A stretch of 64,000 bases of DNA from Nitrospirota bacterium (GTDB lineage Bacteria; Nitrospirota; UBA9217), in NCBI GenBank assembly GCA_963751455.1, contig CAVVUN010000015.1, positions 1,248,001-1,312,000 on the forward strand, read 5' to 3'. The notes under the pieces were generated by a model that was given only the letters and a program-made list of their open reading frames with translations, was not told the origin of the DNA and made no database searches. A program made the translations under genes and the position numbers. Shown here one piece after another: positions 694 to 61,623 of the stretch; positions within the stretch are counted from its first letter, which is position 1, and each line of letters starts with the position of its first letter.

Positions 694-847
694 GCAACTG
701 CTTAGACTTTCTCACACAAAGCCACAAAGTCACGAAGAAAGGCTTTAATTCGGAGGTTTACACAAAAAGACTGTTTAATCTTTTGTTTTTCTTTGTGTGC
801 TCCGTTCCTTCGTGTGAGAATATTTTTTCATGGTCCTGAGTAGTTAC
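694..847. repeat. nested intergenic inverted-repeat element (CAC-periodic arms 709-820 inside GTAACTA-type ends)
   Basis: ttctcacacaaagccacaaagtcacgaag ... ctttgtgtgctccgttccttcgtgtgagaa; outer ends gcaactgcttag / ctgagtagttac. Confidence 0.6.
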
Positions 848-1798: not shown

Positions 1799-4744
1799 GT
1801 GTTTTCTCCCTGGATCCTGCTCACAGTCATTTTTTTCTATCTTCTCCTCCTGTTCTTGGTGGCATATTTCGCAGAGCGCAAGGAACTGCAGGGGAAAAGC
1901 CTCGTATCCAATCCTTATATTTATTCGCTCTCTCTGGCCGTTTACTGCACATCATGGACTTTTTACGGAAGCGTCGGCAAGGCGGCGAACGCGGGCCTCA
2001 GTTTTCTCACGATCTACGTAGGCCCCACATTGATGGCGGCGCTCTGGTGGATCGTTCTGAGAAAGATCGTCCACATCTCCAGGGAGAACCGCATCACCAC
2101 GATTTCCGACTTCATCGGCTCACGCTACGGCAAATCGCTCTCGTTATCCGCCCTCGTTACTCTCGTCGCCGTCGTCGGGATCACCCCGTACCTGGGCCTG
2201 CAGCTCAAGGCCATTATGACGGCATTCTCCCTGCTTTCGGGCAGGCCCGAGGGAAATCATTTTGCCGGCTGGTTCATCTCGGTGCTGCTCGGCGTATTCG
2301 CCGTCATCTTCGGCGCCCGCCGGCTGGACGCCTCCGAGCGGCACGGCGGCCTGGTCTTCGCAATTGCGTTCGAATCGGCCATCAAGCTGGTGGCCTTTCT
2401 CATGGTCGGGATTTTCGTCACGTACGGGCTCTTTCACGGTTTCGGCGATATCTTCACCCGGATCGCCAACAGCCCCCATGCGGCTCTCATGAAGATAGGG
2501 CCCGGTTCGGGAGTAAGTTTTCTCGAATGGACATCGCTTACCTTCCTCTCGATGATGGCCATTATGTTTCTGCCACGGCAATTCCACGTGGCGGTCGTCG
2601 AAAATTATTCGGCGGACCACATCAAGAAAGCCATGTGGCTTTTCCCTTTGTATCTGTTTTTGATCAATATATTTGTTCTTCCGATCGCATACGGGGGGCT
2701 TCTCCTGAGCGATATTTCCTCCACCGCCGACTATTACGTGCTCAGCATCCCGATGCATTACGGCCACCCGCTTCTCGCTATCATCGTCTTTATCGGCGGG
2801 TTTTCAGCGGCAACCGCCATGATCATCGTGGAATCGATTGCCCTGAGCACCATGGTCATGAACAGCTTCGTGGTGCCGACGCTCTGGGACCTGAGCGGCA
2901 TCAAGAATTTTTACGCGGTGATCCTGAACATAAAGAGGCTTGTCATTCTCGGGTGCGTGTTTCTCGGGTACGCCTTCGCTATCTACATCGGGGACTTCTA
3001 CAGTCTGGTGGACATCGGGCTCAAGTCGTTCGAAGCGGTCACTATCTTCGCGCCCTGTATTCTGCTCGGTCTCTATTGGAAAGGTGGAAATAAAAAAGGC
3101 GCGACTGCCGGCATCATCGCCGGTTTCTCAGTCTGGATCTACACCCTGCTGATTCCCGCGCTCATGCGGGCAGGGATCATTGTTCCGGGCGGTACGATGG
3201 AATCGCTTTTCAACTCAAGGCTTCTGAATCCCACCGCGCTGTTCGGTCTTGACGGGCTGGACCGGTGGAGTCACTCCCTGTTCTGGGGCATGCTCCTGAA
3301 TGTCGGCTTCTATGTGGGCGTATCGTTGTTTACAAAGCAGTCCGACGCCGACACGCGCCAGGCGATCATTTTCGTGGATTCCTATTCGCCGCTCCAATTT
3401 TCTCATCCACAACGGCCGTCCAGCATTGCCGAAATCGAGGATATTCTCGGTCAGTACATCGGTCTTTTCGAGGCACGGGAGGCCGTAGAAGTGTTCCTCA
3501 AAAAGAACCAGCTCAATCGTGAATCCATTTCGACCGAGTGGCTCTTCAAGCTGAGGCAGGAAGCGGAGCGCATGCTCTCAGGGGCGCTGGGTCCGTCCAT
3601 CAGCACGCTCGTATTCCAGGAGCGGGCCGTCCTTACCCATGAAGACGCCATTCGTGTCTCGAATTCTATCCAGCAGATATCCCGCAGTCTCAGATTATCC
3701 AGGCAGGAACTGGCCGATGCCAATCGTCAGCTCGCGATGTTGAAAGAATTCAGCGAAAACATCATCGAGAGCCTTCCGCTCGGGGTGGCAACGCTCGACG
3801 AGTCGTTGCGCGTAAAATATTGGAACAGCGGTATGGAGATGATCACCGGCGTGGAAAAATCCGATGCGCTTACCAGCGAAGCGGCAGACCTGCTGACCTG
3901 CCTGGAGCCGCGTCTTTTTACACCCCAGATACGTGAAGGTGAGATCACCTGCAGGAGAAACTTCGAGCCGCAGATCATACTCAAAGGCTACGTCAGCAGA
4001 CTGACCGGCGCGCAAAAAGGGTATGTGCTTGTTCTCGAAGACATTACCGAGAAAAAGAAGATCGAGGAGGAGCTGTTCCGCGCGACCAAGCACGCGAGCG
4101 TGGGCAGGCTTGCGGCCGGCGTGGCGCACGAAATCGGGAACCCGCTTGCCTCCATTTCATCCCTGGTCCAGGAGCTGCAGAGCGAAACCCTGTCTCCGTT
4201 CGTGAAGGACTCGCTTTCAACGATCAACGAACACGTGCACCGGATCGCCCGCATTGTCCGGAACCTCGGGGACTTCGCCCGGCTCTATCCGCGCCAGAAG
4301 GTTCCCACGAACCTGAAGGACATACTCGAGAACACGCTCAGCCTTGTTCGGTACGACAAAAACTTCAGGAAGATCGAAGTTCGGTCCGATGTCGAGCAAA
4401 CGCCGCCTCTTAAAATAGACCCCGACCAGATTCAGCAGGTTTTTTTGAATTTGATCCTGAATGCGCGGGACGCCATGCCGGAAGGCGGGTCCCTGGCGAT
4501 CAGCGTGAAACAAGTCGACGGCAATGTCGAAATGCTGTTTTCCGACACCGGCATCGGGATCGACGCGGAAGTCAAGGAAAAGGTATTCGATCCTTTCTTC
4601 AGCACGAAGGGGCCGACCAAGGGCACCGGCCTGGGCCTCTCGATCTGCTACAGCATAATCAAGGACCACGGCGGCACCATCGAAATCGATTCCAAGAAGG
4701 ACAAGGGCACCACGTTCATCATTAAAATACCTGTTGCGGCATAG
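1799..4744 (+). CDS. sodium:solute symporter (SLC5)-fused sensor histidine kinase, CbrA/CrbS-like (SSS-STAC-PAS-HisKA-HATPase)
   Basis: YSLSLAVYCTSWTFYGSVG, PRQFHVAVVEN, many TM helices; H-box AHEIGNPL; FDPFFSTK..GTGLGL. Confidence 0.9.
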   Translation: MFSPWILLTVIFFYLLLLFLVAYFAERKELQGKSLVSNPYIYSLSLAVYCTSWTFYGSVGKAANAGLSFLTIYVGPTLMAALWWIVLRKIVHISRENRITTISDFIGSRYGKSLSLSALVTLVAVVGITPYLGLQLKAIMTAFSLLSGRPEGNHFAGWFISVLLGVFAVIFGARRLDASERHGGLVFAIAFESAIKLVAFLMVGIFVTYGLFHGFGDIFTRIANSPHAALMKIGPGSGVSFLEWTSLTFLSMMAIMFLPRQFHVAVVENYSADHIKKAMWLFPLYLFLINIFVLPIAYGGLLLSDISSTADYYVLSIPMHYGHPLLAIIVFIGGFSAATAMIIVESIALSTMVMNSFVVPTLWDLSGIKNFYAVILNIKRLVILGCVFLGYAFAIYIGDFYSLVDIGLKSFEAVTIFAPCILLGLYWKGGNKKGATAGIIAGFSVWIYTLLIPALMRAGIIVPGGTMESLFNSRLLNPTALFGLDGLDRWSHSLFWGMLLNVGFYVGVSLFTKQSDADTRQAIIFVDSYSPLQFSHPQRPSSIAEIEDILGQYIGLFEAREAVEVFLKKNQLNRESISTEWLFKLRQEAERMLSGALGPSISTLVFQERAVLTHEDAIRVSNSIQQISRSLRLSRQELADANRQLAMLKEFSENIIESLPLGVATLDESLRVKYWNSGMEMITGVEKSDALTSEAADLLTCLEPRLFTPQIREGEITCRRNFEPQIILKGYVSRLTGAQKGYVLVLEDITEKKKIEEELFRATKHASVGRLAAGVAHEIGNPLASISSLVQELQSETLSPFVKDSLSTINEHVHRIARIVRNLGDFARLYPRQKVPTNLKDILENTLSLVRYDKNFRKIEVRSDVEQTPPLKIDPDQIQQVFLNLILNARDAMPEGGSLAISVKQVDGNVEMLFSDTGIGIDAEVKEKVFDPFFSTKGPTKGTGLGLSICYSIIKDHGGTIEIDSKKDKGTTFIIKIPVAA

Positions 4745-4780
4745 CGTTCCATCCGCAGATGCTCTGTAAAGGCGTAGGAA

Positions 4781-4926
4781 TTTTATCCGCAGATTACACA
4801 GATTACGCAGAGAAAGAGAAATATCAAATTATAAAGCCGAGAGATCAGGAAGATTTAGAAATCAGAAGAATGAATTATTGTTGTCTGATTTTTAATCCGT
4901 GTAATCGGCGTAATCTGCGGATAAAA
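4781..4926. repeat. CGCAGAT-family inverted-repeat element (9-bp periodic arms)
   Basis: ttttatccgcagattacacagattacgcag ... aatccgtgtaatcggcgtaatctgcggataaaa. Confidence 0.8.
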
Positions 4927-4934
4927 AGGACACG

Positions 4935-5345
4935 ATGATGAAGCCTTTGTCTGTTGAAATAGCAGAAGCCTCAGAAAAAGATCCGAGAACATATGCTCTG
5001 ATCGGCGCAGCTATGGATGTCCATCGGGAGTTAGGATGTGGGTTCCTCGAAAATGTGTACCATGAAGCATATGCATATGAATTGGCAGACAAGAAAATAC
5101 CGTTTGGACGGGAAGTGGAGTTGCCGGTATTTTATAAAGCTATAAAAATGGACACATCCTATCGCGCAGATTTCATTTGCTTCGAAACTGTAGCCGTTGA
5201 AATTAAAGCTCTCGCGAAGATAGGGCGCATTGACGAAGCTCAAATCATTAATTATTTGAAAGCAACAGGGTTCACGGTGGGCCTACTCTTGAACTTTGGT
5301 GCGGCGTCACTGGAATATAAGCGTTTTGCTTTTACCAAGCCTTAA
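4935..5345 (+). CDS. GxxExxY protein (PD-(D/E)XK nuclease-like)
   Basis: VHRELGCGFLENVY, RADFI..VEIKA, QIINYLKATG..GLLLNFG. Confidence 0.9.
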   Translation: MMKPLSVEIAEASEKDPRTYALIGAAMDVHRELGCGFLENVYHEAYAYELADKKIPFGREVELPVFYKAIKMDTSYRADFICFETVAVEIKALAKIGRIDEAQIINYLKATGFTVGLLLNFGAASLEYKRFAFTKP

Positions 5346-5413
5346 CGCTGTCAAAAAAGATCTTAAGTTCAGAGAATTCTGTCGTTTTTATTTTGCGAAA
5401 TTAATTTTTGTTT

Positions 5414-5443
5414 AATCTGTGCAATCTGTGTAATCTGCGGCTA
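5414..5443. repeat. right arm of CGCAGAT-family element downstream of the GxxExxY gene
   Basis: aatctgtgcaatctgtgtaatctgcggcta; complementary to atccgcagat at 4751 and 4785. Confidence 0.7.
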
Positions 5444-5514
5444 AAAGGAATGGTTTTCATCATTTTTCTTAATCCGTTTAATCCGAAAAAACTGTGGGAT
5501 AGAATGAGGTTTTT

Positions 5515-6864
5515 ATGTCAAAGAGCATTCTGATTGTCGAAGACGAAGAGACGCTGCGGGAATCCATCAAGCGCATTTTTATGAAGGAAGGCTTTATGGT
5601 TGATGCAGCGGACTCCGCCGAAAAGGGGCTGGCCCTGCTCGAGACGAGCGTCTATGACGTTATCATTTCCGACATCATCCTTCCCGGCATGGACGGGATC
5701 GAGATGCTCGTAAAGGTCCGGGAACAGATACCCGACCAGATATTCATCGTTATTACCGCATATGCGTCGCTCGACACGTCGGTAAAAGCTCTTCGTGCCG
5801 GGGCGTACGATTACATTATGAAGCCCATTATCCATGAAGAGATCAAGCAGATCGTCAGGAATGCGCTCCGGCAGAAGAGTCTTCAGTCCGAGAACGTTCT
5901 GCTCAAGCGCGAAATCGGGAAGAGCTACGATTTCAGCAGCATCATCGGCGAAAGCCCGGCTTTGAAGGCCATCTTGAGCGAAGTACGCAAGATCACGGAC
6001 ACAAAGAGCAACGTACTCCTGCTCGGGGAGACCGGGACGGGCAAGGAGCTTTTTGCCAGGGTCATTCACCACAACAGCTCGCGCCGGCTTATGCCGTTCG
6101 TGCCGATCAACTGCTCAGCCATCCCGGAAAATCTTCTGGAAACCGAGCTCTTCGGCCACGTGCGCGGCGCTTTTACCGGCGCAGTCGCTTCAAAAAAGGG
6201 CATTCTCGAGGAGGCTGAGGGCGGAACCGTGTTTCTTGACGAGATCGGAGACATGAGCCTTGCGCTCCAGGCGAAACTGCTTCGTGTTATCGAGGACCAG
6301 ATTATCCGTCCGGTCGGGAGCACCAAGGGCACCAAGATGGATATCAGGTTTCTAACCGCGACCAACAAGGACGTCCGTATGGCAGTAAAACAGGGGAGCT
6401 TCCGGGAAGACCTCTATTACCGGATCAACGTCATCTCGATCCAGATTCCGCCGCTTCGTGAGCGGAAAGAAGACATCGCCTCGCTGATCCGTTACTACCT
6501 CGATAAGTATTCGCAGGAAGTGGGCAAACAGGTCAAGGACATTTCGCCGGATGCGATGCACATCATGCTGAACTACGAATGGTCCGGGAACGTGCGCGAG
6601 CTTCAGAACGTGATCGAACGGGCTATCCTTATTTCGGACGGGGACATTATCGGGCCCGCTCACTTGCCGCTGAGCATGAGGTCGGATGGCGCACTGGAGC
6701 AGGATGTCTTCGATCAAAAACTCTCCATTGAAGACTATACAAAGGCCTTCATTCAGAAATACCAGACCCAGTTCAACGAGCAACAGCTTGCCGACATGCT
6801 TGGAATAACGCGCAAATCCCTCTGGGAGAAGCGGAAAAAATGGGGGATACAGAAGGAGCGGTAG
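5515..6864 (+). CDS. sigma54-dependent response regulator (NtrC family, CbrB-like C-terminus)
   Basis: receiver domain, GETGTGKE, GAFTGA, GNVREL; C-terminus LSIEDY...LADMLGITRKSLWEKRKKWGI. Confidence 0.9.
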   Translation: MSKSILIVEDEETLRESIKRIFMKEGFMVDAADSAEKGLALLETSVYDVIISDIILPGMDGIEMLVKVREQIPDQIFIVITAYASLDTSVKALRAGAYDYIMKPIIHEEIKQIVRNALRQKSLQSENVLLKREIGKSYDFSSIIGESPALKAILSEVRKITDTKSNVLLLGETGTGKELFARVIHHNSSRRLMPFVPINCSAIPENLLETELFGHVRGAFTGAVASKKGILEEAEGGTVFLDEIGDMSLALQAKLLRVIEDQIIRPVGSTKGTKMDIRFLTATNKDVRMAVKQGSFREDLYYRINVISIQIPPLRERKEDIASLIRYYLDKYSQEVGKQVKDISPDAMHIMLNYEWSGNVRELQNVIERAILISDGDIIGPAHLPLSMRSDGALEQDVFDQKLSIEDYTKAFIQKYQTQFNEQQLADMLGITRKSLWEKRKKWGIQKER

Positions 6865-7007: not shown

Positions 7008-7197
7008 TGTAACTATTCAGCTTCACGGCATTAAGACAAATCTGAGAAAAGCCTTCTATCCGCGGATTTCGTACCCTGCTGTTGCCGAAGCGCGGGCACA
7101 AGCAGATGGACGCAGATTTTAAAATCAGAATTCGGGTTTTGTTTTTATCTGCGAAATCGGCGTAATCTGTGGATAAAAAATGACCTGAGTAGTGAAA
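7008..7197. repeat. nested MITE-like/CGCAGAT inverted-repeat element
   Basis: ends tgtaactattcag / ctgagtagtgaaa; inner arms tatccgcggatt...cgcagatt / atctgcgaaatcggcgtaatctgtggata. Confidence 0.65.
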
Positions 7198-9191: not shown

Positions 9192-9399
9192 ATCCGCAGA
9201 TTACGCCGATTGCACAGATTGAAGAGAACACCAATTATGAAAGTCATAAAAAGTGTTATTTCGAGCGAGAAATATCTTTATGATTGGTTGAAAAGAGTCT
9301 TCACCTCCTCGAAGCAGACACTTACCAATATGATACAGATGTATCGTTGTTAAAATATTATTAGAATATAATCTGCGCTCATCTGCGTAATCTGCGGAT
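9192..9399. repeat. CGCAGAT-family inverted-repeat element
   Basis: atccgcagattacgccgattgcacagatt ... aatctgcgctcatctgcgtaatctgcggat around an AT-rich core. Confidence 0.75.
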
Positions 9400-11519: not shown

Positions 11520-11794
11520 ATCCGCAGATTGCACAGATTTAGCAGATCGATTAAATTAAAGCTGAAAGATATTAATGAGAGGAAAGATCTAGAAACCTTT
11601 ACTTCGCATTATCTTTAAATTTGAGTCAAGTTTTTGAGAAGCTAAAAAGCATTTACCGCGAAGGCGCGAGGAGCGCGAAGGAAACCATACGACAAAATCT
11701 TATTTCTGGTTTAAACCCGTTTCAATTCCTGCTTTCCTCGCGTCCTTCGCGCCTTCGCGGTTCCAAGGTATTTTTTGTGCTGTAATCTGCGGAT
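11520..11794. repeat. CGCAGAT-family element with a nested CGCGAAGG-family element (11655-11761)
   Basis: atccgcagattgcacagatt...taatctgcggat; inner accgcgaaggcgcgaggagcgcgaagg / cctcgcgtccttcgcgccttcgcggt. Confidence 0.75.
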
Positions 11795-19088: not shown

Positions 19089-19509
19089 CTCCGGCATTTT
19101 AGGGAACGACGTATCCCAACTGTCGTTATTCTTGAATGCTTAAATCCAAAATCCAGAAGCCATCAAAAACTTTACCGCGAGGGCGCCAAGAGCGCGAAGG
19201 AAATCATTACCCAGCGGCAGGCTTTATTGTATAAAATAAAACTGCTTGCTATATCTGGGAATATTACACGCTGATGGTTCGCGGAGCAGGGAAGAGAGCT
19301 TCTTTATCAATCCCGGTCTGCGGGGAGCGATCAATTATATATAAGTCCGGGCTGCAAGTTGTGCCAGGCCTAGCATTTCCGATCGGCATTGGGGCCTCTC
19401 ACGGAGAATACAGCTTTATCTTTCTTTTGAGCGTCCATTCATTATTCTGATCCCGGCCCTCGGCAATCTGACGGCGAGCAGCGCCCCCGCTGACTGCCTA
19501 TCGATTAAT

Positions 19510-21845: not shown

Positions 21846-21923
21846 TTTATCCGCAGATTTCGCAGATTTGAAAGAATTAATTATCTAATTTAATCGGCGA
21901 AATCTGTGTAATCTGCGGATAAA
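21846..21923. repeat. CGCAGAT-family inverted-repeat element
   Basis: tttatccgcagatttcgcagatt ... aatctgtgtaatctgcggataaa. Confidence 0.75.
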
Positions 21924-26532: not shown

Positions 26533-26628
26533 TAGCCGCAAAGAACGCAAGGGACGCAGAGAAAGATTCGAAATTAAAATTTAAGAACGCAGCTGATTTC
26601 TTTGAGTTCTTTGTGTTCTTTGCGGTTA
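26533..26628. repeat. CGCAAAG-type periodic inverted-repeat element
   Basis: tagccgcaaagaacgcaagggacgcagaga / tctttgagttctttgtgttctttgcggtta. Confidence 0.7.
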
Positions 26629-27408: not shown

Positions 27409-27694
27409 AGCCGCGAATTGACGCAAACCTTGAACCGCAAAGGCGCAATGGTCGCGAGGAAAGCAAAGCCAACAGCAGGGTTTTAAAACCTGAAAAGATG
27501 TTGCATGGTTTCCTTGCGTCCCTCGCGTCTTCGCGGTAAATATTCTTCCCGTTTTGAGAAGATTTTGACTCCTTAGTTACTAAAGGCAACTGGTAAGGAT
27601 CTTGCGATTATTCTGAATTTCGGTAAAGAAAGACTCGAATATGAGCGATTGGCTTTTACCAGGCAGTAAGGGTTATTCGCGTTCATTTGCGGCT
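27409..27694. repeat. nested periodic inverted-repeat elements (inner 27434-27537)
   Basis: agccgcgaattgacgc / gcgttcatttgcggct; inner accgcaaaggcgcaatggtcgcgagga / tccttgcgtccctcgcgtcttcgcggt. Confidence 0.7.
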
Positions 27695-40879: not shown

Positions 40880-41055
40880 CCTAGAAAAAAGCATTTGGGA
40901 CGCAGAAAAATCGGATAAGCGCAGATAAGGTCGGATAAAAAAACGTTCTTGTATCGTAAAAGCAGTCACCCTGCGGATGAATTTTTTTCTCTAAAAATTC
41001 TTTTGTTTGATCTGCGGTTATCTGCGTTCATCTGCGTCCAACTGCCGTTTTCAGG
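40880..41055. mobile_element. 176-bp MITE-like element, copy A
   Basis: near-identical to 58335-58510; cct-aaaa / ttttcagg ends; internal GACGCAGA / TCTGCGTC arms. Confidence 0.8.
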
Positions 41056-41678: not shown

Positions 41679-41720
41679 GCTGTTACCCCCTAACCCGGAC
41701 AAGCCGGAACCAACCGTTAA

Positions 41721-41866
41721 ACCGCCAAGGCGCAATGGTCGCGAGGAAGGCTCAAACCAAATACTGGTTTTTAATATCAAAAACGTTTCCCGGTTTCCTC
41801 GCGTCCCTCGCGTCTCTCGTGCCCAGCGTTTATGAGTGCTATAGCGCGAGTGCAGGGTATCGCGGT
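41721..41866. repeat. CGC-periodic inverted-repeat element with a small insertion in the right arm
   Basis: accgccaaggcgcaatggtcgcgagga / tcctcgcgtccctcgcgtctctc[41819-41860]cgcggt. Confidence 0.65.
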
Positions 41867-41973
41867 AAATATTTTCTTGCCTTTTTGAGAAGATTTTCAC
41901 TCGTAACTGACTATGCGTCGGCCGGGACTTCGCCCGGCAGACAAGGCCCTTCGGGCAGTTTGAATTTAACGCT

Positions 41974-50493: not shown

Positions 50494-50583
50494 TTGATCG
50501 ATGAGGAAGAGACATGACGGGCCAAAGCGAATTGACCGCAACGAGCCTAGCGGTCGTCCATCGGTTTCCAGGAGGATACTTTA

Positions 50584-52101
50584 CCTTAACGTTGCATAAA
50601 AAATCGCTATGCGGCCCGTTGCAATCGGTCGAGATAATGCAACAACCCCTTTTTGACTCGTGGATTGGCGTTCATTGTCAGAGTTAGCTTGCCGCCGGGC
50701 TGTGTCAGGCGGCCGGCACGCTGTATAAGTGTTCTTCGCAGGGTATTGGGCTCCGTGAACTCCCAAAGAGCGGCCCGTTTTTCGGTGGTGCCCCGGTCGG
50801 GTTCATGCGCGACCATGTGAAGTTCCTTCAGGAGATTGTGCGAGATGATCGCCGACATCATGTATAGCTGATTTCCGTGCAATCTTCTCACAGCCACGTA
50901 ATCCATATTGCACTGGGACTTTAGCTCTCCAAGGATGTTTTCCTGAGAACCGCGGCCCTGATGGAAGTTCAGGACTTTCTTCACCGTCGTTGTTTTGTTT
51001 GTAACGATCACCTTGAAGTCAAACCCGTATTCGTGCGGCGTGAACATATCAAGCTGCACCGGCTCTTTTGACTGCTTTTTGGCTTTTTGACGAATAAAAA
51101 GAAAGCGGAACCGGCTGTCCCAGCTTTTCGGCTTCCAGGGTGTGTCGAGATAGGAAACAACGGAATCGTAACGCCTCCAGCGTTTTTTGGCTTCGATCAT
51201 GTGTTTGAGTTCGGAGAACCGCTCAAAGGGGACCGAGATGGTGAACTCAATTCCGTCGCGCTCCAGCGCGCCGACGATTTCATCGCTGAAGAAAGCGCTG
51301 TCCATGCGCACTTCGATGACGATATCCGAACAGGTTGCACGCACCTGTTCGATGCACGCAAGGATGAACGCCCGGGCGCCGTTGGAATCATGTACGTTAC
51401 CCGAACGGGGCAGGACGTCAAGGACCATGCCCAACTGAGCGATCATGCAGAAAAGCGGATAATAGCTTCTCTGCCCTTTTTTCTTTTTGTTGAAGCCTAC
51501 GGCGGCACCCTCAGCCCATCGGGAGGTCGAGAGCACAGAGCCGTCGAAATCAAGCGTCACGCGACGAAGCTTCAAACCCTGTATGCGGGAGAGCGACATT
51601 TCCCGGCAGAACCGACGAAGATTCAAAATGTCCTTTGCGTCGACCGTCATCAATGCCCGGCTGATCGTGGAAACGTCCGGCATTTTTCGGAGGCCCAGAA
51701 GACGAAGCGCCATAAGGTCGTCCTGATAGTATTCGATGTCGCGGAGTTTCCGATAACCCAGCATCAGATGCACGATCAGCACGAGCGTAATGACGTGATT
51801 GCCGAAGATGGCGCTCGACGGTAGATGATCAAAGCAGCTTTTCAAGCGGGCTTTCAGATTCAGCTTCGTGAAGAATGCCTGAATGATAGCAAGGCCCGCG
51901 TAGGAAGTGAGCTGTTGATCCTCGAACTTCAGTTCCGGTATTTTGTGAACGCGGCTTAGAACCTGTGCTTTACTGGACTTCACTTTCAGTGGCCTCCTGC
52001 TTGAGTGAAATAATGATATCGCAGGAGCACTATATCCAATAATGAAGCCTGTTTCCAGAGGTTTCTGCATATTTTCAAGAAATGTTTATGCAACTACAAG
52101 G
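50584..52101 (-). mobile_element. IS1380-family insertion sequence with 4-bp TTTA target duplication
   Basis: IRs ccttaacgttgcataaa / tttatgcaactacaagg (14/17); TTTA at 50580-50583 and 52102-52105. Confidence 0.88.
50607..51983 (-). CDS. IS1380-family DDE transposase
   Basis: LTSYAGL, TLDFDGS, SYYPL, RSGN, VRMDSAF, RGSQEN.LGELK; GTG start with GGAGG RBS. Confidence 0.88.
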   Translation of the reverse strand: MKSSKAQVLSRVHKIPELKFEDQQLTSYAGLAIIQAFFTKLNLKARLKSCFDHLPSSAIFGNHVITLVLIVHLMLGYRKLRDIEYYQDDLMALRLLGLRKMPDVSTISRALMTVDAKDILNLRRFCREMSLSRIQGLKLRRVTLDFDGSVLSTSRWAEGAAVGFNKKKKGQRSYYPLFCMIAQLGMVLDVLPRSGNVHDSNGARAFILACIEQVRATCSDIVIEVRMDSAFFSDEIVGALERDGIEFTISVPFERFSELKHMIEAKKRWRRYDSVVSYLDTPWKPKSWDSRFRFLFIRQKAKKQSKEPVQLDMFTPHEYGFDFKVIVTNKTTTVKKVLNFHQGRGSQENILGELKSQCNMDYVAVRRLHGNQLYMMSAIISHNLLKELHMVAHEPDRGTTEKRAALWEFTEPNTLRRTLIQRAGRLTQPGGKLTLTMNANPRVKKGLLHYLDRLQRAA

Positions 52102-52743
52102 TTTACGGAGCTGTTCGATGTATTAGATTGCCGGGGCGAGATGACCGGCGAAACTGTCGCGCGAGACGAGGCGCACCGGACAGGTGTGTGGCACGGAGCG
52201 TTTCATTGCCTCATCACGTACGAACGCGAGGGCAGGGGATATGCTCTTTTTCAGAGGCGTTCTTTGTCAAAAAAGATAGCGCCGGGCCGGTATGATGTCA
52301 CCGCCGGCGGTCATTATTCGGCAGGGGAGAGCGCAACCGACGCAGGCCCTCGCGAGCTCAGGGAGGAAATCGGCCTCGATGTGAAGTTTTCTGATCTTTT
52401 TCCGATCGGCCGCCGTGTGTTCGTGTACTGTTTCACACCCGGGGTGAAGGAATGCGAATTCCAGGATGTGTTCCTTCTGCCGCTGTCCGCTCAGCCGACC
52501 GGAATTACGTTGGAGAAAGAAGAGGTTGACGGAGTAATTGAAATGGAAGTGGATGCAGGCATCAGGCTCTTCGCACGCGAGGTTCCGTATGCCGAATGCC
52601 GCTTGTCGAAAGACGGTGAAAAAAACGACCTGGTCAGGGTTTCCGCAAACGATTTTGTAACCTGTCTCGACAATTACTACTTGAAACTGCTCCTGCTCGC
52701 AAAGCGGTATTTCAACGGTGAACGAAGGATTCTCTTTATATAG
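52102..52743 (+). CDS. NUDIX hydrolase (IDI-like), 5' end separated by IS1380
   Basis: GVWH..FH, QRRS..K..PG..D.TAGGH..AGE.....RELREEIG; in frame with 50514-50583 before the IS. Confidence 0.8.
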   Translation, partial: FTELFDVLDCRGEMTGETVARDEAHRTGVWHGAFHCLITYEREGRGYALFQRRSLSKKIAPGRYDVTAGGHYSAGESATDAGPRELREEIGLDVKFSDLFPIGRRVFVYCFTPGVKECEFQDVFLLPLSAQPTGITLEKEEVDGVIEMEVDAGIRLFAREVPYAECRLSKDGEKNDLVRVSANDFVTCLDNYYLKLLLLAKRYFNGERRILFI

Positions 52744-56729: not shown

Positions 56730-56866
56730 AGAGTAAATTGGACTACTCATTCCGGGGTTCCCGGAGCGCTGAAGGCCTTCCTTTCATTCATCAATTTCGC
56801 AGTTGGGAGTGATTTTAAAAAAACCAGGTGCGATATAATCTGAGGAATCTGCGTAAGCTGCGGATA

Positions 56867-57147
56867 CTAGTGCACTGTAAAACTAATTCTTGATTGTATT
56901 GCACCTTTAGCCGGGTCCAGTAGTCAGTTACAAATCGAATTCCTCTCAAAACGGCAGGAACATTTACCGCGAAGTCGCGAGGAACGCGAGGAAAGCGAAA
57001 TTCCCGTAATATGCCACAGGGATAGTATTGCCTTCCTGGCGACCTTTGCGCCCTCGCGGTTCAATCTTTTTAGTTCCGGCTTGTTGGCTTAAAGCACACC
57101 GTAATGACGTCGTGGAACTATTAACAACTAGGTTTACGTTGTACTAG
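56867..57147. mobile_element. CTAG-ended MITE-like element with nested CGC-periodic repeat (56966-57060)
   Basis: ctagtgcactgtaaaactaatt / aactaggtttacgttgtactag (17/22). Confidence 0.6.
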
Positions 57148-58334: not shown

Positions 58335-58510
58335 CCTAAAAAAAGCATTTGGGACGCAGAAAAATCGGATAAACGCAGATAAGGTCGGATAAAAAAAACG
58401 TTCTTGTATCGTAAAAGCAGTCACCCTGCGGGTGAATTTTTTTCTCTAAAAATCCTTTTGTTTGATCTGCGGTTATCTGCGTTCATCTGCGTCCAACTGC
58501 CGTTTTCAGG
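58335..58510. mobile_element. 176-bp MITE-like element, copy B
   Basis: near-identical to 40880-41055. Confidence 0.8.
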
Positions 58511-61530: not shown

Positions 61531-61623
61531 TATCCGCAGATTTCGCAGAGTGCGCAGATTATTTAAGAAAGAATAAATCAGGCCATGTATTTTTATCGGC
61601 GAAATCCGCGTAATCTGCGGCTA
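61531..61623. repeat. CGCAGAT-family inverted-repeat element
   Basis: tatccgcagatttcgcagagtgcgcagatt / atcggcgaaatccgcgtaatctgcggcta. Confidence 0.75.

Follow-up and report, generated by a model that had tools for sequence, protein, structure and literature searches.

GxxExxY nuclease-like genes between inverted arms and their dispersed repeats: a likely undescribed selfish gene-and-repeat system

A GxxExxY gene between a kinase and a regulator gene

The stretch of DNA analysed here, called the window below, comprises 64,000 nucleotides of a 5.72-Mb assembly that we label G000. In it a GxxExxY gene lies between the genes of a sensor histidine kinase and a sigma-54-dependent response regulator, and all three genes are on the plus strand (Table 1). 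A preliminary description had placed the gene between these two neighbours with inverted arms on both sides, which is borne out by the profile match of the protein and by the complementarity of the arms. Furthermore, the left arm 4781-4811 is 87% complementary to the inner arm 4896-4926, so that a full gene-less hairpin stands ahead of the GxxExxY gene. The cassette lies between protein genes, hence not in a pre-rRNA. The region 4700-5560 has no match to a sigma-70 promoter or to a terminator, and a search of the window with Rfam gave zero matches. At its N-terminus the kinase has a long membrane part, in which a sodium:solute symporter match is too weak to reach the cut-off.

Table 1. The cassette, its host genes and the other arm sites of the window (positions within the window)
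Position	Strand	Feature	Remark
694..847		IS66-like MITE shell	exact 8-bp target duplication; AAAG hairpin 709-820 inside
1799..4744	+	membrane sensor histidine kinase gene (host gene)	PAS, HisKA, HATPase domains
4751..4760	+	AGAT-arm stub, 10 nt	6 nt past kinase stop
4781..4811	+	left cassette arm, three 9-bp words	from self-comparison of the locus
4812..4926		AT-rich core and inner inverted arm 4896-4926	without counterpart in the G020 cassette
4935..5345	+	GxxExxY / PDDEXK_3 gene, 136 aa	E39, D79, E89, K91 intact
5416..5446	-	right cassette arm	90% complementary to left arm 4781-4811
5468..5503	-	extra right arm, degenerate (67% copy)	ends 11 nt before regulator start
5515..6864	+	sigma-54-dependent response regulator gene (host gene)	downstream of cassette
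7009..7196		decayed copy of 167-bp IS66-like MITE	carries AGAT hairpin
9192..9399		free AGAT hairpin	fills junction after glgB
11520..11794		AGAT hairpin with nested unit	truncated copy of 10-copy TTAA-flanked unit with GAAG hairpin 11655-11761
19174..19204	+	single relic arm	partner not significant
21846..21923		free AGAT hairpin
26533..26628		free AAAG hairpin
27409..27585		relic arm 27409	cut by copy of 4-copy unit with hairpin 27434-27537
40881..41055		MITE with CCT ends, hairpin inside	5-bp target duplication; 26-copy family
41689..41956		multi-copy unit related to unit at 27425	hairpin 41721-41815 inside
56840..56862	-	single relic AGAT right arm	adjoins next unit
56867..57147		283-bp CTAG-flanked unit	9-10 copies at 96-100%; GAAG hairpin 56966-57060 inside
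58335..58510		second copy of CCT-ended MITE	5-bp target duplication
61531..61623		free AGAT hairpin	86-88% likeness to 3 other copies ends at arm tips

The protein matches the GxxExxY profile TIGR04256 with 135.6 bits (cut-off 35) and PDDEXK_3 (PF13366), its only Pfam match, with a score of 131.2 (cut-off 22). The family is large, with 6,773 relatives in one length-limited search. Across 148 sequences, residues E39, D79, K91 and N120 do not vary at all, and E89, Q103 and Y107 hardly vary; we take the Q-x-x-x-Y motif to be RecB-linked. The PD-(D/E)XK fold that had been assumed for the protein agrees with the structure model of the 136 residues (pLDDT 90), which matches restriction-endonuclease-like folds with the E, D and (D/E)xK residues intact. 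Foldseek ranked the Cas4 protein SSO0001 (PDB 4ic1, E 6.8e-5) first, followed by AdnA, DinG and RecE, and in a wider fold search the restriction domain of BpuSI (Z 8.7) tied with SSO0001 (VIA Z 8.1). These scores are middling and show the fold of the protein, not its function. A PDB sequence search with the protein gave no match. In the accessible text of two earlier papers, PDDEXK_3 is given as 'Unknown' (PMC3424549) and a GxxExxY gene is mentioned where cas4 had been called (PMC8934634).

At the loci with the closest regulators in related genomes (22 others, 20 of which also have the kinase), the gene is absent from 19 of the 20 kinase-regulator junctions, and six spacers measure -8 to 4 nt; whether the gene is conserved here in all relatives had been named as a check, and it is not. 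The remaining junction, in G020, has a broken GxxExxY copy (67% identical, one premature stop) with the same arms. Relic AGAT arms are kept at this junction in G009, G013 and G018, and seven relatives (L002, L004, L009, L013, L014, L018 and L023) have other word repeats there, of a 7-mer, an 8-mer TTTGAACG, a 9-mer GACAGGAT and a CACGGAT type. The relic arms together with the different word repeats make the junction a hot spot. In the regulator tree, G000 and G020 are not sisters; the cassette may have entered the junction once, long ago, and been lost in many lineages, or it may have entered more than once. Gene-full and gene-less states of one junction do exist, a setting in which a freestanding homing endonuclease would cut the gene-less allele and be copied in by repair; a precise pair of an empty and a filled junction was not found, and the strain-variant contigs give presence and absence without clean boundaries. 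At the junctions of L007 and L010, direct repeats of 10 bp and 9 bp, respectively, duplicate the kinase stop and the ribosome-binding site on both sides of the insert. Potentially, this is a hint contrary to the lack of a target duplication reported below, and we regard it as a lead only.

Arms and words at GxxExxY genes

Inverted arms are not limited to this locus. Read by eye, they occur at all 8 GxxExxY loci of G000, with differing words and always between co-oriented genes; note that one of these loci is a strain variant of another and that four look broken. The other full-length copies in G000 are 35-38% identical, so there was no recent duplication of the gene. Two further loci on contig C15 may be described here: at 1702995-1703330 a long-branch GxxExxY gene with a purine-rich GGAGAA-type arm pair has kinase and regulator neighbours, and at 1718986-1719395 about 80 inserted nucleotides split a GxxExxY gene.

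Among relatives, all 30 of the best-scoring loci fetched from 21 genomes have inverted arms, and the median arm-pair score is 39 for own pairs as opposed to 18 for crossed pairs (29 rows). Enrichment of arms near GxxExxY genes had been set beforehand as the test on which the idea of a linked repeat depended. In many phyla, inverted arms (score of at least 26) were found at 66 of 79 usable loci, which come from the best 80 of 579 matches in a species collection, compared with 1 of 60 control pairs placed 1 kb away. A GxxExxY gene of the cultured Geofilum rubicundum (L108) has weak arms. Cassette tips could be placed for 84 of 110 loci, giving a median length of 468 nt, and both sides start with the same four-letter word in 75 of the 84. 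The upstream gene is co-oriented with the cassette in 62 of 71 cases by a crude test, and the left tip lies at a median of 10 nt from its stop. Direct repeats just beyond the tips of the 84 cassettes are not in excess (P = 0.10), which speaks against a target duplication.

The number of repeats follows the presence of the gene, as the preliminary description had expected: in 41 genomes the median excess of arms is 17.9 per Mb with the gene (21 genomes) and 2.3 without it (20). Within the family, it is 18.8 per Mb with the gene (20 genomes) and 0.3-10.4 without it (5). Where the GxxExxY profile matches at all, it does so 1-10 times per genome. Exceptions are G029 and G038 (98% and 92% complete), which have real arms although no gene was detected in them, and G018 and G011 have 10-11 AGAT matches and no close AGAT-clade gene.

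In G000, the commonest 12-mer of the assembly is TATCCGCAGATT with 185 occurrences. The three-anchor pattern occurs 201 times as compared to 41 times for the same pattern read backwards, and a strict search gave 106 paired elements in the genome and 0 in the reversed genome. We used the reversed pattern as the control since a Markov simulation, with 1 match per Mb, understates the background. Note that some copies are counted twice because the assembly has 5.37% contamination and strain-variant contigs. The contigs C7 and C10 and the starts of C2 and C3 are 77-96% copies of other contigs; C2 carries single-base indels, and the duplicated stretches are probably strain variants or assembly artefacts. 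From 54 in-register pairs we obtained the arm consensus, a tandem CCRCRRA-NNN-CRCRRA. Its period is 9, sometimes 10, which corrects the period of 8-9 given earlier: period 8 is not above controls (8 and 14 of 79 loci, compared with 9 and 7 of 60). AGAT matches number 194 in G000, with 90 inside MITEs or multi-copy units and 104 outside, and 0-12 in each of 40 relatives. G000 also has 48 AGAG matches, yet none of its 8 GxxExxY loci is of the AGAG type. Its commonest 12-mers also include those of two families of CRISPR-like repeats, with about 166 and 87 copies (C12:502661-508911).

We also looked at AGAT loci in metagenomes and viruses. Among 58 usable metagenome loci (of 123, 65 being too short), there are 5 with GxxExxY, 34 gene-less hairpins, 17 arms without a partner and 2 with a distant partner and no clear gene. 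GxxExxY was found in none of 79 usable viral AGAT loci (of 135, 56 being too short), and in neither collection did the arms enclose any other gene convincingly. AGAT hairpins occur at 27 of the 79 usable viral loci (L282-L416) with no adjoining GxxExxY gene.

We wanted to know how the arm words relate to the protein clades. On a quick tree of 114 columns, the 9 words of 70 rows change 13 times, compared to at least 25 changes (mean 28.8) in 200 shuffles. The AGAT word spans 12 phyla, and its arms are near 90% alike across proteins that are 50-60% alike, therefore some constraint on the arms is needed. Since concordance between word and clade is expected from linkage alone, counting the words in trans, over the whole genome, is a stronger test. 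It was made with 26 of 57 AGAT-clade rows and 22 of 23 GAA-clade rows, hand-chosen to spread over phyla. The median counts in AGAT-clade and GAA-clade genomes are 30.5 and 1 for the AGAT word, and 2 and 16.5 for the GAA-type word. With the two own arms removed, the cognate word leads in 38 of 48 genomes, trails in 7 and ties in 3 (it is ahead in 19 of 26 genomes of the AGAT clade and 19 of 22 of the GAA clade), where related genomes are not independent and one gene was typed per genome. In raw counts, the cognate word is ahead in all 14 Chloroflexota and all 5 Acidobacteriota, and in 7 of 8 Planctomycetota. Thus, the dispersed gene-less word mostly matches the clade of the genome's own GxxExxY gene.

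The ratio dN/dS is 0.025-0.072 in 9 of 12 pairs of GxxExxY genes, the other three, including the window gene and that of G020, being saturated; these values indicate that the gene is under strong purifying selection. Such selection, together with the old unduplicated copies, would suit a protein kept by the host for defence or DNA-structure processing, the arms being host-selected binding or titration sites. There is also a precedent, since in the parts of the papers available to us the PD-(D/E)XK Rpn proteins were at first taken for factors of mobility (PMC5350276) and afterwards presented as toxic proteins that act against phages (PMC10400941). We consider a host benefit of this kind improbable, given that PADLOC gave no match to the protein, that several GxxExxY clades with different words live together in single genomes, that the gene has a patchy distribution and in many cases is damaged (4 of 8 loci in G000, and G020) and that, by our reading of the neighbours, it is placed in housekeeping operons.

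Gene-less hairpins, MITEs and operon junctions

The preliminary description listed 16 other arm sites in the window, most of them with an unrelated core between inverted arms. All of them carry arm-like words; an inverted partner is significant (a score above the 95th percentile of random regions) at 12 of the 16 only. The sites without one are 7057, which is interrupted by an insert, and the single relic arms 19174, 27409 and 56847. By position, 8 sites lie in MITE shells or multi-copy units, 5 are free pairs and 3 are single arms, with 11520 counted as a free pair and 7057 as a shell. With half of the sites inside such shells or units, the cores are not all unrelated.

Two MITE families of G000 account for many of these copies. 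The first, with GTAAC ends, is 157-172 bp long and has an AGAT hairpin as cargo; 35 of its 52 shells have an exact 8-bp target duplication, and its ends share only 9 of 12 end bases, plus the 8-bp duplication, with the genome's IS66. The second has CCT ends and 98 shells (81 with a 5-bp duplication), in which the hairpin directly adjoins the 17-18-bp ends. Four full-length copies of this family, 1624 bp long, have a PF13701 transposase, and the ends of the MITE at 40881-41055 match this full-length element, which is presumably an IS1380-like insertion sequence. Three smaller multi-copy units in G000 hold hairpins as well. In G000, the ends of ordinary insertion sequences have secondarily captured gene-less hairpins, which multiplied as MITEs. 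In two other genomes, 20 of 20 gene-less pairs (10 hand-picked per genome from 64 and 219 matches) share neither flanks nor cores, so free hairpins are the general form.

Some further observations concern insertion sequences and nesting. In many MITE families of G000, the IS-like ends enclose palindromic hairpins of another kind, by our reading GTAG-type, GTCATTCC-type and others, and the same sort of end can be seen around different hairpins; judging from these sequences, MITEs may quite generally arise by the capture of hairpins. A full insertion sequence lies at 50580-52104 of the window, with a PF13701 transposase of 487 aa at 50607-52070 on the minus strand; it has about 10 copies in the genome, and one of its ends resembles the TTAA-flanked unit at 11590. 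At C1:718623-719188 of G000 there is a triple nesting, with the AGAT hairpin outermost, the AAAG hairpin within it and, innermost, a TTAA-flanked unit that holds GAAG. A four-helix-bundle (PF05635) gene at C2:320592-321028 is split by an IS66-like MITE, and the other PF05635 genes of G000 have their own, different word repeats in the flanks.

The free arms favour junctions within operons. By our own gene calls, 150 of 171 junctions with free arms are co-oriented and 8 divergent, compared with 74% and 15% of all junctions of at least 100 nt, and the excess of co-orientation is significant (P = 2e-5). For MITE shells, 97 of 140 junctions are co-oriented. The bias of the free arms fits a role in the mRNA or a selection against promoter regions. 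It was also supposed early on that the insert might be an intervening sequence folded out of the operon mRNA. In such a case the arms would pair in the transcript, the insert would form a loop, the stop codon would come to lie close to the following start, and the protein or RNase III would process the stem. Besides the placement of free arms and the short distance between the left cassette tip and the upstream stop, the predicted RNA fold of the locus speaks for this, with the outer arms pairing around the gene. So do tRNA splicing endonucleases, which are present, though low, in the fold lists, and the cassette arms, which agree better with their partner (0.74) than with other arms of the same word (0.56).

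The pairing tests, on the other hand, give this idea no support. The z-score of the fold is only -2.2. We were not able to find an excess of G-U-compatible differences on the mRNA strand, neither in 55 free elements (23 versus 22) nor in 54 cassettes (23 versus 13, P = 0.13). At the variable positions of 41 gene-less AGAT pairs, partners agree in 0.55 compared to 0.69 for random arms of the same word. The top fold matches of the protein, moreover, are DNA nucleases. Since the gene-less pairs have neither covariation nor a G-U bias, the idea of an RNA stem is weakened, and although the elements favour junctions within operons we regard it as rather unlikely. The earlier statement that paired arms stay largely complementary needs correction here: paired arms have their word in common, the gene-less ones included, but gene-less partners do not covary at variable positions. 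What stays conserved is the word itself, as expected for a site read by a protein.

Exchange at arm tips and comparison with known systems

Several sequences look as if pieces bounded by arms had been exchanged. The hairpin at C3:340098 is identical to the inner hairpin of a MITE (90 of 90 positions), with unrelated flanks and an identity that goes no further than the tips. In the G020 cassette, the right end corresponds to the left half of a similar MITE and stops at the arm tip (111 of 147); its part before the arm scores 57, compared with a shuffled maximum of 26. The left arm of the G000 cassette bears an extra hairpin that is missing in G020, at a strain-variant junction both arms are kept and the core is not alignable, and among several free copies the likeness of 86-93% is confined to the stretch between the tips. 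Two cassettes between genes that we take to be hemH and hemG were considered as a case of replacement and dropped, as they can be aligned over their whole length and seem to be two variants of a single locus.

Ordinary gene conversion could explain all these tip-bounded signs of exchange, and a nuclease that cuts at the arms would drive such conversion. The signs may also be read in a way that leaves the nuclease out, with an unrelated role: the cassette only seeds arms, and gene-less copies result from gene loss and are spread by host recombination and IS transposases. The 52 IS66-like and 98 CCT-ended shells in G000, most of them with hairpins, agree with this reading, and so do the relic arms at the junction of three relatives and the arms in genomes without a detected gene. 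Nevertheless we think it unlikely, because 104 of the 194 AGAT matches lie outside MITEs and units, far above the counts in the 40 relatives, because the 20 copies in two other genomes lack common flanks and cores, and because the arms are so alike across 12 phyla in spite of the divergence of the proteins.

We see about an even chance that we are dealing with a REPIN/RAYT-like system of different chemistry, in which the nuclease cuts at its cognate arms and repair copies hairpins tip to tip. The unit of travel would be the GxxExxY gene with its two inverted arms, a cassette of roughly 470 bp. The predicted nuclease would recognise its own type of arm by the 9-bp words and would cut the DNA at or near cognate arms. 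When the host repairs the cut, a piece between two arms, be it gene-bearing or gene-less, would be copied into another arm pair and now and then into a junction of co-transcribed genes that was not occupied before; in this best reading we infer the binding, the cutting, the repair copying and the first entry into an empty junction. It speaks against this reading that, to our knowledge, no strand-joining domain is evident in a hydrolytic nuclease of 136 aa. A route by cutting and subsequent template switch has been proposed for Rpn nucleases in the available passages of PMC5350276. A stronger version, in which GxxExxY proteins are word-specific nucleases that drive transposase-free mobile DNA by tip-to-tip exchange and the gene-less hairpins are both progeny and landing pads, is one that we offer tentatively, with the odds somewhat against it.

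The pair of an autonomous and a non-autonomous element, analogous to RAYT and REP, that the preliminary description had suggested is supported in one respect, the word specificity in trans. As a simple pair it overstates the window, because half of the sites listed are parts of MITEs or multi-copy units and two genomes without a detected gene hold arms; furthermore, one MITE family has its own DDE transposase.

In the literature accessible to us, mainly the main texts of open papers, we found no description of the system. The nuclease-and-repeat system is real and widespread and apparently undescribed, and the gene with its cognate dispersed repeats is likely an undescribed selfish gene-and-repeat system. 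It accounts for a commonest-repeat family in many uncultured genomes, and its clade-specific DNA word would give the very large, function-less GxxExxY family a defined candidate substrate. Note that MITE capture can inflate the copy number of repeats. If the best reading is true, REPIN-like repeat populations arose a second time with an unrelated enzyme chemistry, and a nuclease of 136 residues with clade-specific sites could serve as a tool. If GxxExxY proteins are word-specific exchange nucleases, at least a dozen phyla contain natural, orthogonal and very small cassette-exchange systems, and if arm-directed exchange is shown, it would be a categorically new kind of system.

Several known systems share features with this one. 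Cas4/RecB-type domains (SSO0001) have the same catalytic E, D and E-x-K and the Q-x-x-x-Y motif, but the loci here have no CRISPR context, the alignments show no conserved cysteines, and the identity is 13-18%. The 23S rRNA intervening sequences with S23p four-helix-bundle proteins, as far as the accessible text of PMC4990558 describes them, also have a small gene in a long-range stem, of about 430-470 nt; here, in contrast, the host is an mRNA operon, the protein has a nuclease fold, gene-less copies are abundant and there is no RNA pairing signature. The outer shells in G000 are like IS-derived MITEs in their terminal repeats and their 8-bp or 5-bp target duplications, whereas cassettes and free hairpins have neither such ends nor a target duplication, and the hairpins are cargo. 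The genes of the Rpn/YhgA-like nucleases (PF04754) also encode PD-(D/E)XK enzymes and also lie within housekeeping operons, where one junction has been entered repeatedly (PMC5350276, in part), but they belong to a different Pfam family and RpnA shows little sequence specificity; the passages of that paper available to us do not describe flanking arms or dispersed cognate repeats of Rpn.

Like REPINs and RAYTs, as far as described in the accessible parts of 10.1101/2021.07.10.451892 and PMC3733652, the elements are extragenic inverted doublets of ~100 bp with a variable spacer, in tens to hundreds per genome, and as in REPtrons and TIRtrons a conserved nuclease gene is flanked by its cognate repeat. 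The enzyme here, however, is a PD-(D/E)XK protein and RAYT an HUH/Y1 transposase; the arms are tandem 9-bp words whereas REPs are short palindromes with a GTAG or CGTC tag; and whereas RAYTs are single-copy and vertically inherited, several GxxExxY clades occur per genome and one clade is spread over 12 phyla.
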